Assembly (NCBI GenBank): GCA_035702405.1
Contig: DASSQR010000096.1
Coordinates: forward strand, 2,037-66,036
Length of the DNA stretch: 64,000 bases
Source: Gallionella sp.
Lineage (GTDB): Bacteria > Pseudomonadota > Gammaproteobacteria > Burkholderiales > Gallionellaceae
Reading direction: 5' to 3'
This document shows, one piece after another, positions 25,124-31,784 of this stretch. The first letter of the stretch is position 1. Each line of letters begins with the position of its first letter. A program made the position numbers and the translations under genes. The notes under the pieces are model-generated. The model saw nothing but the letters and a program-made list of their open reading frames with translations, was not told the origin of the DNA and searched no databases.

Positions 25124-25141
25124 ACTTCTTGTTTGCTGATT

Positions 25142-25265
25142 CGTCATTCCCGCGAAGGCGGGAATCCAGCAGGCAAAAACTCCGCGAAGGCGGACAAGGC
25201 CACGGTTTTGTCCTGCTGTGCGGAATTATTCAATCAACTGGATTCCCGCCTTCGCGGGAATGACG
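25142..25265. repeat. REPIN-like doublet of CGTC-tagged palindromes (dRS3-like)
   Basis: CGTCATTCCCGCGAAGGCGGGAATCCAG at 25142-25169 and its inverted copy at 25238-25265, between convergent genes. Confidence 0.88.
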
Positions 25266-25267
25266 GA

Positions 25268-27496: not shown

Positions 27497-28126
27497 TTAA
27501 CGCAGCAGTGGTTGCAGGGCCTTCAGCACATTGCGCATCAGTTGCGGTTGTGCGGCTTCATTCGGATGCAGGTTGTCGGCCTGGAATTGGTCGGGTTTGA
27601 CCCCCTCCAGCAGGAACGGCAGCAGGCTGAGACGATATTTTTTTGCGAGCCGCGGATACAGGTTATGGAATTGCGTGATGTACGGCTCGCCGTAGTTCGG
27701 CGGTAGCTTCATGCCGACCAGCACGATTTGCGCGTTCGCTTTCTGGATATTCTCGATGAGAGCGGTCATGTTGGCTTCGACACTGCTGATGCTGTAACCG
27801 CGCAGGCCGTCATTCGCACCCAGTTCCAGAATCACGATGGCAGGGCGGTATTGTTGCAGAGCGCTGGCAATACGCTCGCGCCCGCCCAGGGTGGTTTCAC
27901 CGCTGATGCTCGCATTCACAATGTGATATTTTGCGCCGGTACGCAGCAGTTGCTGCTGCAGCAGGTTTACCCAGCTTTTTTCTCGGTCGATGCCGTATCC
28001 GGCTGATAGACTGTCGCCGAATACCAGGATGTTTTTGGCCGCGTGCGCGGGCGCAGGCTGCCACACGGCGGTCGCCAGCAAGAAAATCAACATGAGCGGC
28101 AATTTTGCCAAGGATGAATTCTTCAT
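27497..28126 (-). CDS. tesA: Arylesterase/acyl-CoA thioesterase I (SGNH)
   Basis: Signal peptide, GDSLSAGYG, NASISGETT, ELGANDGLRG, DNLHP. Confidence 0.9.
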   Translation of the reverse strand: MKNSSLAKLPLMLIFLLATAVWQPAPAHAAKNILVFGDSLSAGYGIDREKSWVNLLQQQLLRTGAKYHIVNASISGETTLGGRERIASALQQYRPAIVILELGANDGLRGYSISSVEANMTALIENIQKANAQIVLVGMKLPPNYGEPYITQFHNLYPRLAKKYRLSLLPFLLEGVKPDQFQADNLHPNEAAQPQLMRNVLKALQPLLR

Positions 28127-28790
28127 GACAGTGATTGTGCAGGCGGTTGAATTGAGTAAGCAAGTGTTAAGCGGCGCGCAGCCGCTGTCAATTTTGCACG
28201 AGGTCAATTTTGCCGTTGATGCAGGCGCCAGCGTGGCGATTCTGGGCGCTTCCGGTTCCGGCAAGTCCACCTTGCTTGGCTTGCTCGCCGGGCTGGATGT
28301 GCCGACGAGCGGCAACGTGCTGCTCAACGGCAATGACCTGTTCGCGCTGGACGAGGACGGGCGCGCCCGATTGCGCGGCGAACTGGCCGGCTTCGTGTTC
28401 CAGTCATTCCAGTTGTTGCCGGCGCTGAATGCGCTGGAAAACGTGATGCTGCCGCTGGAGCTGCGCGGCGTGGTCGATGCGCGCGAACGCGCGATGGGAT
28501 CGCTGCGCCAAGTCGGCCTGCGTGAACGTGCGCATCATCTGCCCAAACATCTGTCCGGTGGCGAGCAGCAGCGCGTCGCGCTGGCACGCGCATTCGTCAC
28601 CCAGCCGAAAATCCTGTTCGCCGACGAACCCACCGGCAATCTCGACGCCGCTACCGGCGCGCAGGTGATTGAGCTGATGCTGGAACTCAATCGCGCGCTG
28701 GGCACGACGCTGATCCTGGTTACGCATGACGCCGCATTGGCCGGTCGCTGTGGCCGGCAGTTGCATCTTGCCGCGGGGCGGATGGCATGA
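28125..28790 (+). CDS. ABC transporter ATP-binding protein (YbbA-like)
   Basis: Walker A GASGSGKST, LSGGEQQRV, ADEPTGNLD; divergent from tesA as in E. coli. Confidence 0.92.
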   Translation: MTVIVQAVELSKQVLSGAQPLSILHEVNFAVDAGASVAILGASGSGKSTLLGLLAGLDVPTSGNVLLNGNDLFALDEDGRARLRGELAGFVFQSFQLLPALNALENVMLPLELRGVVDARERAMGSLRQVGLRERAHHLPKHLSGGEQQRVALARAFVTQPKILFADEPTGNLDAATGAQVIELMLELNRALGTTLILVTHDAALAGRCGRQLHLAAGRMA

Positions 28791-28813
28791 AGGTGCTTTA
28801 TCATGGCGTTGGA

Positions 28814-28877
28814 TTTTGTCCGCGCTTTGCGCGGATTCGTTCAATCAACTGGATTCCGGCCTGCGCCGGAATGACGG
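28814..28877. repeat. Single CGTC-tagged palindromic arm with internal segment
   Basis: Palindrome CTGGATTCCGGCCTGCGCCGGAATGACGG at 28849-28877; whole segment is a near-identical direct repeat of 29242-29305. Confidence 0.88.
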
Positions 28878-28895
28878 AACGCGGCGAGCAGTGAG

Positions 28896-29186
28896 ATGAA
28901 CAAGCAACCCTGCGTCTATCTGCTCGCAAGCAAACGTAATGGTACGTTGTATGTCGGTGTGACGTCGGATTTGATCAAACGAATCTGGGAACACAAGAAT
29001 CATGTCACCGAAGGGTTCACCAGTAAGTATGGTGTGGATCGGCTGGTCTGGTATGAGATGCATGAAACGATGGAGTCTGCTATTCAACGAGAAAAGGCGG
29101 TCAAGGAATGGCAGCGGGCATGAAAGGTGCACATCATTGAGCAAACCAATCCGAACTGGGATGACCTCTATGGAACCCTATTATGA
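28896..29186 (+). pseudogene. GIY-YIG nuclease family protein interrupted by an in-frame TGA
   Basis: VYLLAS..GTLYVGVTSDL..R..EH, SAIQREK; TGA at 29121-29123 where W is expected; the homologous tail KVHIIEQTNPNWDDLY continues in frame to 29186. Confidence 0.85.
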
Positions 29187-29187
29187 T

Positions 29188-29305
29188 CCGTCATTCCGGC
29201 GCAGGCCGGAATCCAGCGGTTTTATTGAAAATGCCGTTGAGTCTTGTCCGCGCTTTGCGCGGATTTGTTCAATCAACTGGATTCCGGCCTGCGCCGGAAT
29301 GACGG
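29188..29305. repeat. REPIN-like doublet of CGTC-tagged palindromes
   Basis: CCGTCATTCCGGCGCAGGCCGGAATCCAG at 29188-29216 and its exact inverted copy at 29277-29305. Confidence 0.9.
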
Positions 29306-29312
29306 TTGTTTC

Positions 29313-31784
29313 ATGAACCTGCTCCGCCTCTCCTTCAACCTTCTCCGCCGCGACTGGCGCGCGGGCGAATGGCGCGTGCTGCTGCTGGCGCTGTTGCTGG
29401 CGGTGGGCAGCCTGAGCACGGTCGAGCTGTTTGGCGACCGGGTGCGGCTCGCGTTGCAGCAGCAGGCACAAAGCCTGATCGGGGCGGATCTGCGCATTAC
29501 TTCGACGCGGCCGCTGCCGGATTCTTATGCGGCTGCGGCCAAAGCGCTCGGTCTGCGCACCGTCACCAGCCTGACCTTTCCGAGCATGGTGTTGTTCCGC
29601 GAGCAGACTTTGCTGAGTGAGATTCAGACCGCTGAACCGGGCTATCCGCTGCGCGGCAAGATTGTCATCAACGACGGCTATGAGCATGTGGCGACCGCGA
29701 TTCCGGCGCCCGGTACGATCTGGGCTGACGAGCGGCTGTCGCGGCGGCTGGGGGTGGCGCTGGGCGATACGGTCGAGATCGGCAAGCAGCGCTTCGTGGT
29801 GTCGGCCTATATCGTGAAGGACATCGATCAGGCCATCGGCTTTGCGAGTTTTGCGCCGAAGGTGATGATGAACGCGCAAGACTTGGTGGCGACCGGCTTG
29901 CAGCAGGAAGGCAGCCGCATCAGTTACCGCCTGATGATTGCCGGTGACGCGGCGCAAGTTGCGAGGTTGCGCGACCAGTTGAAAAACCGGCTGTCCGGCA
30001 GCGAGAAACTGGAAGACGTACGCGATGCGCGGCCCGAGATTCGCACTACGCTGGAGCGCGCCGAGCACTTCCTCGGGCTGGCTGCACTGACCGCCGCGAT
30101 TCTCGCCGGTGCGGCCATGGCGCTGGCCGCGCGCCGGTTCGTGCAGCGCCACCTGGATGGCTGCGCAGTGATGCGCTGCCTGGGCGCGCAACAGGGCCAG
30201 GTGCTGCGCCTGTTTCTGTACCAGTATCTGTTGCTGGGCGTTGTTGCGGTATTGCTCGGTTGCGGGCTGGGATATGTCACGCAGGCGGTGCTGGTGAATT
30301 TCCTAGCGGCGCTACGCAGTGCGGGGTTGCCGCAGCCAAGTGTATTACCGTTGTTGAAGGCGGCGGCGAGCGGTTTTGCGCTGCTGTTCGGGTTTGCCTT
30401 CCTGCCGCTGTTGCAGCTGCGCAAGGTGTCGCCGCTGCGCGTCTTACGCCGCGAGATGGGTAACCCTCCGGCCAGCGCCGCCCTGGCTTACGGTGTCGCC
30501 GTGTTAGTGTTGGCGGGGCTGTTCTTGTGGCAGGCGGATTCGACCAGACTGGGGCTGACGATGCTGGGCGGACTGCTCGCCGGGATGGTGGTATTTGCCG
30601 GCGTCGCGTGGCTGCTGCTGCATGGCCTCGCGCGTTATGCCATGCGTTCGGCCTCTTACTGGCGGCACGCGTTTGCCAATCTGGCACGGCACGGGCGCAC
30701 CAATGCGATGCAGATCGTTGCGCTCAGCCTGGGCGGCATGGCGCTGTTGATGCTGACGCTGGTGCGCGCCGACCTGTTGCGCGGCTGGTACGACAAGCTG
30801 CCGCCGGATACGCCGAACCGTTTCGTGGTGAATATCCAGCCGGACCAGAGGCGGGCCGTGGAGGAATTCTTTGTACGCCGCGCAATGCCACCGCCCCAAC
30901 TGTTGCCGATGGTGCGCGGCCGGCTGGTCGCGCTCAATGACCGACCCATCACCGGCGACAGCTATCCCGATCAGCGTGCGCGCGCATTAGTCGAGCGCGA
31001 ATTCAATTTGTCCTGGGCGGAGCAGATGCCGGCGTGGAACGAACTGGTGCAGGGCAAATGGTGGAGTGCGGGAGCGAAAGCGGAGCTGTCGGTCGAGGAG
31101 GGTATTGCAAGTACGCTGGGCATCCGCCTCGGCGATGTGCTCACCTACGATGTCGCGGGCAGCCGCTTCTCCGCGCGCGTGACCAGTCTGCGCAAGGTGC
31201 AGTGGGACTCGATGCGCGTGAATTTTTTCGTCATCGCCACGCCGGCATTGCTGCAGGATTATCCGGCCAGCTATCTCTGCAGCTTTTATCTGCCGCCGGG
31301 GCAGGTGCGTGTGGGCGACCAGTTGGCGCTGGAATTCCCCAATCTGCTGGTGATCGATACCGGGGCGGTCATCGCGCAGGTGCGCAACATCATGGACCAG
31401 GTCGCGCAGACGATGAGCGTAGTATTTCTGTTCACTTTGTTCTCCGGGTTTGCGGTGCTGTATGCCGCACTACTGGCGACACAGGACGAGCGCATCCACG
31501 AGGCGGCGATCCTGCGCACCCTCGGCGCGGTTAGCGGTTATCTGCGCCGTCTGCACCTGAGCGAATTTGCCGCGCTGGGTTTGCTGAGCGGTTTGTTCTC
31601 GGCGGCCGGCGCCGTGCTGCTGGGCTGGGTGCTTGCGCGCTTCGTGCTGGAAATCCCGTATCAGCCAAGCTTCGCCATCTGGCTGATCGGCGGTCTGGGC
31701 GGGATGGCGGTGGTGATGCTGGCCGGATGGCTGGGCACACGCCGCCTGATGCAGCTGCCGCCACTGGTGATCCTGCGCGAATAG
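29313..31784 (+). CDS. ABC transporter permease (YbbP/FtsX-like)
   Basis: RRDWRAGE, IGADLRI, GYPLRG, MRCLGA, PNRFVVNIQP, EAAILRTLGA. Start set at MNLLRL; the upstream ORF extension lies within the repeat. Confidence 0.9.
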   Translation: MNLLRLSFNLLRRDWRAGEWRVLLLALLLAVGSLSTVELFGDRVRLALQQQAQSLIGADLRITSTRPLPDSYAAAAKALGLRTVTSLTFPSMVLFREQTLLSEIQTAEPGYPLRGKIVINDGYEHVATAIPAPGTIWADERLSRRLGVALGDTVEIGKQRFVVSAYIVKDIDQAIGFASFAPKVMMNAQDLVATGLQQEGSRISYRLMIAGDAAQVARLRDQLKNRLSGSEKLEDVRDARPEIRTTLERAEHFLGLAALTAAILAGAAMALAARRFVQRHLDGCAVMRCLGAQQGQVLRLFLYQYLLLGVVAVLLGCGLGYVTQAVLVNFLAALRSAGLPQPSVLPLLKAAASGFALLFGFAFLPLLQLRKVSPLRVLRREMGNPPASAALAYGVAVLVLAGLFLWQADSTRLGLTMLGGLLAGMVVFAGVAWLLLHGLARYAMRSASYWRHAFANLARHGRTNAMQIVALSLGGMALLMLTLVRADLLRGWYDKLPPDTPNRFVVNIQPDQRRAVEEFFVRRAMPPPQLLPMVRGRLVALNDRPITGDSYPDQRARALVEREFNLSWAEQMPAWNELVQGKWWSAGAKAELSVEEGIASTLGIRLGDVLTYDVAGSRFSARVTSLRKVQWDSMRVNFFVIATPALLQDYPASYLCSFYLPPGQVRVGDQLALEFPNLLVIDTGAVIAQVRNIMDQVAQTMSVVFLFTLFSGFAVLYAALLATQDERIHEAAILRTLGAVSGYLRRLHLSEFAALGLLSGLFSAAGAVLLGWVLARFVLEIPYQPSFAIWLIGGLGGMAVVMLAGWLGTRRLMQLPPLVILRE

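Follow-up and report, generated by a model that had tools for sequence, protein, structure and literature searches.

Does a small nuclease gene that sits among palindromic repeats have a functional tie to those repeats, and is such a pair a new kind of system? The question is raised by a stretch of 64,000 nt, here called the window, from the genome of a Gallionella sp. (Gallionellaceae; GenBank assembly GCA_035702405.1, 3.0 Mb in 128 contigs), in which it is C96:2037-66036 (contig DASSQR010000096.1). A stand-alone GIY-YIG gene lies here between a ybbA-like and a ybbP-like gene, with inverted hairpin arms that carry a CGTC tag on both of its sides. The original prediction was that such CGTC-tagged, dRS3-like palindromes may be spread or processed by this small GIY-YIG family as their cognate enzyme, the two forming a RAYT/REPIN-like pair without a classical transposase. 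The pairing proves to be right; its novelty does not stand, as the system was published in 2025 (PMC11893778). The locus is very probably a decaying copy of the Ssn/NTS module described by Chenal et al. (Nat Commun 2025;16:2388, PMC11893778).

In that module a 28 nt consensus sequence, the NTS (CGTCATTCCCGCGMAVGCGGGAATCYRG), which contains dRS3, is spatially tied across phyla to ssnA, a 94 aa GIY-YIG gene (CDD cd10448) that is NMB0047/NMV_0044 in Neisseria meningitidis (PMC11893778). A Ssn-related motif (SRM) is present near 71% of the homologs and on both sides of 42%. SsnA binds the NTS only as single-stranded DNA (ssDNA), and only one of its strands, and cuts a few nt upstream. Its activity on the NTS modulates transformation in N. 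meningitidis, and alteration of the palindrome with retention of the hairpin abolishes the activity of the N. meningitidis enzyme (PMC11893778). The Discussion of the same paper likens NTS-ssnA-NTS to insertion sequence (IS) elements and to REP-associated transposases, and proposes a set of sequence-specific enzymes that cut ssDNA. With this architecture and the RAYT/REP analogy already in print, the enzyme-repeat pairing is not new. Previously, dRS3 had been classed as CGTC-1 REPs, and the CGTC REPs were said to 'lack a dedicated transposase' (Di Nocera et al., BMC Genomics 2013;14:522, PMC3733652). A literature search found no later paper on the mobility of Ssn.

The gene in the window, referred to here as ssn, is a 96-codon pseudogene at 28896..29186 of the plus strand, with its own stop at 29184-29186. 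Once an internal TGA is read through, the product has a GIY-YIG domain (PF01541, E=4.5e-17) that covers residues 5-77, and no further Pfam domain is present in the 96 codons. An NCBIfam scan gave no family name, just a weak, sub-threshold match to a group I intron endonuclease model. Arm R1 (28849..28877), of which the minus strand reads CCGTCATTCCGGCGCAGGCCGGAATCCAG, ends 18 nt before the ATG. Arm L2 (29188..29216), which is CCGTCATTCCGGCGCAGGCCGGAATCCAG on the plus strand, begins 1-2 nt past the stop, and the CGTC tags of both of these arms face ssn. Arm L2 is followed by a doublet spacer (29217..29276), in which there is a small internal hairpin (TCCGCGC-TTT-GCGCGGA, about 29247-29263), and by the outer arm of this downstream doublet, R2, on the minus strand (29277..29305), which ends 7 nt before the permease ATG. 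Arms L2 and R2 are 100% complementary and 60 nt apart. The inverted arms around ssn extend over 43 nt and are 86% complementary. Flanking by NTS/SRM on both sides, as in the published system, is therefore present here, and it is present as well at the related genes on contigs C11 and C118 described below.

The left border of the block is the ybbA-like ABC transporter ATPase gene (28125..28790, plus strand, stop at 28788-28790; Pfam ABC_tran, E=5.5e-33) and the right border is the ybbP-like FtsX-family permease gene (29313..31784, plus strand; Pfam FtsX, E=2.3e-20, and MacB_PCD). The Pfam matches fit the labels that had been given to both neighbours, and the predicted arm 18 nt before the ATG, full doublet directly after the stop and tags facing the gene are all found. 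Between the ATPase gene and R1 is a remnant of the spacer of an upstream doublet (28803..28848), a direct repeat with 29231-29276, of which the outer L arm is absent by comparison with the closest relative. The direct repeats had been placed at 28814-28877 and 29242-29305; they are near-identical as described, at 93%, and slightly longer, 28803-28877 and 29231-29305.

The motif GTCATTCC-N10-GGAATC has 5 matches in the window, compared with 0.04 expected from shuffles. A doublet free of any nuclease gene is located at 25142..25265, between convergent sppA-like and yyaL-like genes. Both of its arms (25142-25169 and 25238-25265) are CGTCATTCCCGCGAAGGCGGGAATCCAG, are 100% complementary, and fit the NTS consensus exactly; the ssn-adjacent arms depart from it by one compensatory stem pair. 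This doublet had been read as a copy of the one beside ssn. The doublet is there, yet its stem subtype is ATTCCCGC, whereas that of the ssn-flanking arms is ATTCCGGC. Folded as ssDNA, R1 forms an intra-arm hairpin of 8 bp (-8.9 kcal/mol). The fold of 29184-29308 is a single long inter-arm hairpin of -55.6 kcal/mol (z=-13.5), and that of the 25142-25265 doublet has -49.6 kcal/mol (z=-9.9).

A genus resembling Neisseria was sought among candidate genomes through counts of the neisserial DNA uptake sequence. Genomes of genus g56 have up to 392 copies of this sequence, ATGCCGTCTGAA, and the genome of the window has none; g56 is on these grounds probably Neisseria. A profile built from the three Gallionella paralogs has full-length matches in 19 of 61 g56 genomes, with E from 1e-35 to 1e-45. 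The window protein is 56-62% identical over its full length to eight g56 homologs (E 1e-37 to 1e-39), all eight of which sit in dense NTS arrays. In four of these loci (L151-L154) an arm is found 7 nt past the end of the protein match, as in the window. The spacing of the catalytic residues Y6/Y17/E64, which were mutated in N. meningitidis SsnA (PMC11893778), is that of Y7, Y18 and E65, which are invariant in the three Gallionella paralogs with spacings of 11 and 47.

The locus thus shares with the published module a single GIY-YIG domain of about 95 aa, a 28 nt CGTC-tagged hairpin containing dRS3, the NTS-ssn-NTS architecture and tens of extra hairpin copies in the genome. It differs in the TGA at Trp75 and the loss of one outer arm, in the compensatory stem variant ATTCCGG/CCGGAAT of the ssn-adjacent arms, and in an environmental host with about 90 arms rather than hundreds. 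Compared with the CGTC-1 REPs, dRS3 and NIME (PMC3733652), the repeats have the same CGTC or TGTC tag, an 8 bp stem and a mostly dimeric inverted organisation; they also are placed after genes and between convergent genes, and have no flanked RAYT. The 2013 account had no transposase for these repeats, and the Ssn partner was not then known. Homing endonucleases of the I-TevI type share the GIY-YIG catalytic core, and also a patchy distribution, frequent decay and insertion between the genes of an operon. The ssn product differs from them in that its 96 codons hold one domain, with no separate DNA-binding domain. Characterised Ssn relatives cut only ssDNA, at a hairpin, and not a long duplex homing site, and the recognition sequence of Ssn is a dispersed repeat.

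A search of the whole genome with PF01541 identified six small GIY-YIG genes and a 620 aa match, which is taken to be UvrC. One subfamily consists of the gene in the window and two intact paralogs, on C11 and C118, to which the window copy is 80% and 67% identical, respectively. All three are bracketed by arms, and have a common layout: 18-25 nt separate the ATG from the end of an arm whose tag points at the gene, and an arm or arm remnant past the stop is followed by a spacer and another arm. Each of the three has a different genomic context and its own hairpin stem subtype. The other three small genes (C39:36388-36603, C124:16122-16337 and C104:8153-8362) belong to a different subfamily, matching the Ssn profile with E from 3e-9 to 8e-7, and there are no CGTC arms within about 2 kb of them. 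The intact C11 paralog (C11:6300-7450) lies between open frames of 580 aa and 893 aa, which by eye are methyltransferase-like and helicase/res-like. A complete doublet, C11:7219-7337, is inside the 580 aa stop-to-stop frame and may be an in-frame repeat insertion in coding sequence.

The copy number of the repeat in the genome was obtained in two ways. The strict motif has 43 copies, with none for a reversed control pattern. There are 415 perfect hairpins with a stem of at least 8 bp, 96 of which have a [CT]GTC tag (CGTC or TGTC), where the median is 2 per 4-mer tag; about 90 of the tagged perfect hairpins in the genome are of the NTS family. Their stems include the variants ATTCC/GGAAT, ATACC/GGTAT, ACTCC/GGAGT and ATGCC/GGCAT, in which pairing is kept by compensatory changes, and the stem subtypes ATTCCGGC, ATACCGGC, ATTCCCGC and ACTCCCGC/ATGCCCGC. 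A lone arm folds as an 8 bp hairpin in ssDNA. The arms are arranged as 33 doublets with outward tags and 36 solo arms. Pairs of arms with inward tags at most 400 nt apart occur only twice in the genome, around the GIY-YIG genes on C96 and C118.

Some doublets combine different arms. Eight copies of hetero-doublets of ACTCCCGC/ATGCCCGC have spacers of 19-21 nt, and six copies that pair ATACCCGC, ATACCGGC or ACTCCCGC with ATTCCGGG have spacers of 39-42 nt; neither kind has an adjacent nuclease gene (examples are C39:23380-23440, C76:44968-45027 and C43:33220-33302).

Of the four Y1_Tnp (RAYT-like) genes in this genome, on C8, C54, C35 and C74, each has its nearest CGTC arm at least 2.9 kb away or no such arm on its contig. 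With 0 of 4 Y1_Tnp loci adjoining a CGTC arm, a RAYT was rejected as the mobiliser of the CGTC repeats in this genome. An origin of the repeats from a RAYT or IS element elsewhere, which would have competed with the predicted pairing, is therefore not what is seen here.

If the nuclease and the repeats belong together, hairpins should be enriched beside homologous genes. This was assessed at 80 loci of close homologs (64-83% identity) from Gallionellaceae, other Proteobacteria, Chloroflexota, NC10, Nitrospirae and other groups, with a detector that called a tag plus a perfect hairpin either near the gene (within 150 nt) or in the remaining ±3 kb. Of the 80 loci, 66 have a tagged hairpin within 150 nt and 31 have one on each side. 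The density falls from 5.19 per kb in the near interval to 0.096 per kb in the remainder, a 54-fold enrichment close to the gene. In most phyla the flanking arms are single with their tags outward, in contrast to the Gallionellaceae-like clade, where ssn lies between two full doublets; this is why the gene-nearest arms point inward here. The repeat was scanned for in 401 genomes of the order. It is carried by 49 of 66 Ssn-positive genomes, versus 67 of 334 Ssn-negative ones (odds ratio 11.5, p=4e-17). At least 10 copies are present in 26 of 66 versus 18 of 334 (odds ratio 11.4, p=5e-12). Among the 18 of 44 repeat-rich genomes that lack Ssn is that of a congener, G002, which has 26 copies. Protein identity and the stem sequence of the nearest arm covary (r=-0.24, 0 of 2000 permutations), a correlation in which shared ancestry is not controlled. 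Both the enrichment and the covariation, the latter with this limit, are as the original prediction had anticipated.

These data bear on the simplest alternative, that the nuclease gene came by chance to lie in an intergenic hot spot rich in repeats and is functionally unrelated to the palindromes. REP-like repeats do generally accumulate in intergenic DNA, and the junction that holds ssn is an insertion hot spot with unrelated cassettes in congeners. Those other cassettes at the same junction have no CGTC arms, however, and the enrichment extends over 80 loci from many phyla. Furthermore, all three paralogs are bracketed, the only inward-tag pairs in the genome sit at ssn genes, and SsnA has been reported to bind and cleave the NTS (PMC11893778). 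The probability left for coincidence is negligible, the local enrichment, the arm-free cassettes and the inward-tag pairs already contradicting it.

The internal TGA of the window copy, at 29121-29123, is at the position of Trp75, which is Trp in both paralogs and TGG in the ortholog of G014, the closest relative by permease identity. The window copy does not have an intact reading frame and is most likely inactive. It is a pseudogene member of the Ssn family, and the TGA is read as ordinary decay. Disruption is common in the genus, where 7 of 19 ssn copies have stop codons or a split frame; in the order-wide sample 7 of 95 hits have a stop. The gene is present in 14 of 40 other genomes of the genus.

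Beyond the TGA the frame has 20 further codons, among them those of the conserved C-terminal motif IIEQTNPNWDDLY, before it ends at a normal stop. This leaves room for recoding: with readthrough of codon 75, or its decoding as Trp, the gene would be functional, and the expression of a potentially harmful nuclease would be kept low and regulated. An independent ssn pseudogene, L159 (G426:C19:5300-6300), from a genome of presumed Neisseria, also has TGA at the same Trp75 codon. This was judged to be a coincidence, because other pseudogenes break elsewhere: the stops in the other disrupted copies examined are at K33, Y7, Y44, W71 and V26/R27. A Trp codon is one transition from TGA, therefore recurrence by chance is to be expected, at roughly 1 in 10 to 1 in 30 by our estimate. 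TGA also serves as the terminal stop of ssn and of the neighbouring ATPase gene, and the G014 ortholog has TGG. Programmed recoding at Trp75 is very improbable and was rejected on the stops elsewhere in other pseudogenes and the TGG of the ortholog.

If the intact paralogs act as their characterised homologs do, they would cleave ssDNA in a hairpin- and strand-specific manner. By homology, an Ssn protein would bind the NTS hairpin only on ssDNA, and only on the strand reading CGTC-stem-loop-stem-C, and would make a hydrolytic cut in the bound strand a few nt 5' of the CGTC tag. Three cuts are predicted at the window locus. Two would fall in the minus strand, immediately to the right of 28877 (in the interval from R1 to the ssn ATG) and of 29305 (ahead of the permease ATG). 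The third would fall in the plus strand, immediately to the left of 29189, where ssn has its stop codon. The C11 and C118 paralogs could act in trans on about 90 arms, including the 33 REPIN-like doublets.

Several points weigh against the assignment to Ssn/NTS and the activity that goes with it. The activity and the cut sites are carried over from enzymes that are 56-62% identical, and the identity of g56 as Neisseria comes only from uptake sequence counts. The ssn-adjacent arms are the stem variant ATTCCGG...CCGGAAT, and specificity must differ between the paralogs, because a change of palindrome abolished the activity of N. meningitidis SsnA (PMC11893778). The long inter-arm hairpin of the doublet, at -55.6 kcal/mol in ssDNA, would hide the single NTS hairpins. 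Finally, the TGA is known from one assembly.

A role for Ssn in the host has also been considered. Domesticated nucleases would restrict or modulate NTS-bearing ssDNA during transformation, conjugation or infection by ssDNA phage, with the repeats marking chromosomal regions and the window copy a redundant, decaying paralog. The transformation assays in N. meningitidis (PMC11893778) are in keeping with such a function, as are the retention of two intact paralogs while the window copy decays and the co-occurrence of repeat and nuclease at the level of the genome. The assays are from N. meningitidis, however, and competence has no record in this lineage. With 37% of the genus copies disrupted and 26 of 40 congeners lacking the gene, strong selection at the level of the host is argued against, and there are repeat-rich genomes that have no nuclease. 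A host function is accordingly a tentative suggestion, with the balance of likelihood against it.

The history of the locus can be followed at the ybbA-ybbP junction, which was compared in 40 relatives. Empty junctions, which the original prediction had suggested looking for, were found in seven congeners. In these the permease ATG is 5-52 nt after the ATPase stop, versus 522 nt in the window (28791-29312), therefore the block is an insertion. In G014 (L179) the order is ATPase gene, full doublet, intact ssn with TGG at codon 75, second doublet, a 1270 aa Mrr/ResIII/helicase gene, and permease gene. Set against G014, the upstream doublet in the genome of the window is without its outer L arm and about 21 nt of its spacer, and codon 75 of ssn is a stop. 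The comparison indicates that the doublet-ssn-doublet block entered the junction before the window genome and G014 split. No target-site duplication is recognisable at the insert in the alignment of congeners and G014.

The nuclease-free doublet at 25142 has no counterpart in congeners: 29 of their loci were examined past sppA, and a CGTC arm was found at none. It was scored as presence or absence only, because of variable synteny past sppA and diverged DNA. Two loci, L203 and L206, keep the sppA-yyaL arrangement, with spacers of just 27 and 17 nt. The sppA/yyaL-like synteny is often broken in congeners. The spacer downstream of sppA in several of them (L182, L183 and L189) has GTAG-type REP-like palindromes, such as GTAGGTCGGGTTAGCG, where the window has the CGTC doublet (25124-25267).

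Within the genus the ybbA-ybbP junction is a hot spot for insertion (loci L092-L121). In G024 (L113) it holds a RAYT-like Y1_Tnp gene flanked by GTAG palindromes and an 81 nt duplicate of the 5' end of the permease gene, and in G016 (L096) a DUF559 endonuclease gene flanked by its own CCCCTCGCCCGTTTACGGGAGAGGGG inverted repeats. ParE toxin and antitoxin genes are present in G019 (L120), a YcgR-like PilZ gene in G023 (L094), and a 176 aa gene without an assigned name in G017 (L098). None of the RAYT, DUF559, ParE, PilZ and 176 aa cassettes of these other congeners has CGTC arms.

These insertions raise the question of whether Ssn also spreads its repeats, in the way proposed for RAYTs and REPINs, which adds a role to the assignment of the locus to the Ssn/NTS module and does not exclude it. 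NTS-ssn-NTS would be an autonomous element and the nuclease-free doublets its non-autonomous, REPIN-like counterparts, both dependent on ssDNA nicks made by the nuclease, with host replication, repair or recombination to follow; the idea of mobilisation was raised in the Discussion of Chenal et al. (PMC11893778). The filled orthologous site in G014 and the seven empty congener junctions identify the cassette as an insertion, and the 25142 doublet likewise is without a counterpart at the 29 sppA loci. That three paralogs occupy three contexts, each with its own stem subtype, also fits, as does the covariation of stem subtype with nuclease. The patchy presence (14 of 40 congeners) and the 7 of 19 disrupted copies are the usual life cycle of a selfish gene, and at the same junction other congeners have a RAYT with GTAG REPs, or a DUF559 endonuclease with palindromes of its own.

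The resemblance to RAYT/REPIN systems (REPtrons) includes a lone small nuclease gene with inverted hairpin repeats on either side, a repeat subtype matched to the enzyme paralog, and many nuclease-free inverted doublets, 33 here with outward tags, that fold as long hairpins like REPINs, a resemblance of architecture only. The RAYT-like gene with GTAG palindromes in G024 is at the very same junction. The tag of the Ssn repeats, however, is CGTC or TGTC, and not GTAG, and the fold of the ssn product is GIY-YIG, not HUH/Y1. GIY-YIG enzymes are hydrolytic and form no covalent DNA intermediate, unlike HUH/Y1 transposases. With no covalent 5'- or 3'-phosphotyrosine link, a GIY-YIG enzyme cannot carry out strand transfer alone. 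The arms of an Ssn doublet are substrates on opposite strands, whereas the ends of IS200/IS605 are on one strand, and transposition chemistry has not been demonstrated. Nor have near-identical recent copies, and there is neither a target-site duplication nor a defined target at the insert. The 18 of 44 genomes with at least 10 copies that have no Ssn, among them G002, also speak against mobilisation, and homologous recombination between repeats could give insertion polymorphism as well. Taken together, mobilisation of the repeats by Ssn is conceivable but rather doubtful.

A broader proposal, for which the expectation is lower still, sees the Ssn/NTS cassettes as a separate kind of mobile element. 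The ssDNA nuclease would nick the border hairpins, and host replication or recombination would copy or move the unit. The solo doublets would be non-autonomous derivatives, for which recombination between the doublets on either side of ssn is one possible origin, and the RAYT and DUF559 cassettes would be part of a wider class. If this is true, Ssn/NTS, RAYT/GTAG-REP and DUF559/palindrome cassettes at one junction would point to a class of 'small nuclease plus own hairpin' elements that prefers such junctions.

The question left by the 2013 account, that of the enzyme partner of the CGTC-tagged REPs, is answered by the Ssn pairing, and the answer was published in 2025. To this the Gallionella locus adds an example and not a discovery. 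What is new here is a dated insertion, given by an intact orthologous insert in the closest relative and by empty sites in congeners, together with a junction at which other congeners have RAYT, DUF559 or toxin-antitoxin cassettes, and a high rate of decay in the genus, with 7 of the 19 copies disrupted. These findings, with the presence in one genome of three paralogs that each have their own repeat subtype, provide comparative material on the mobility of Ssn. The intact paralogs, with their distinct hairpin variants, would be candidates for the set of ssDNA-cutting enzymes that has been proposed (PMC11893778).

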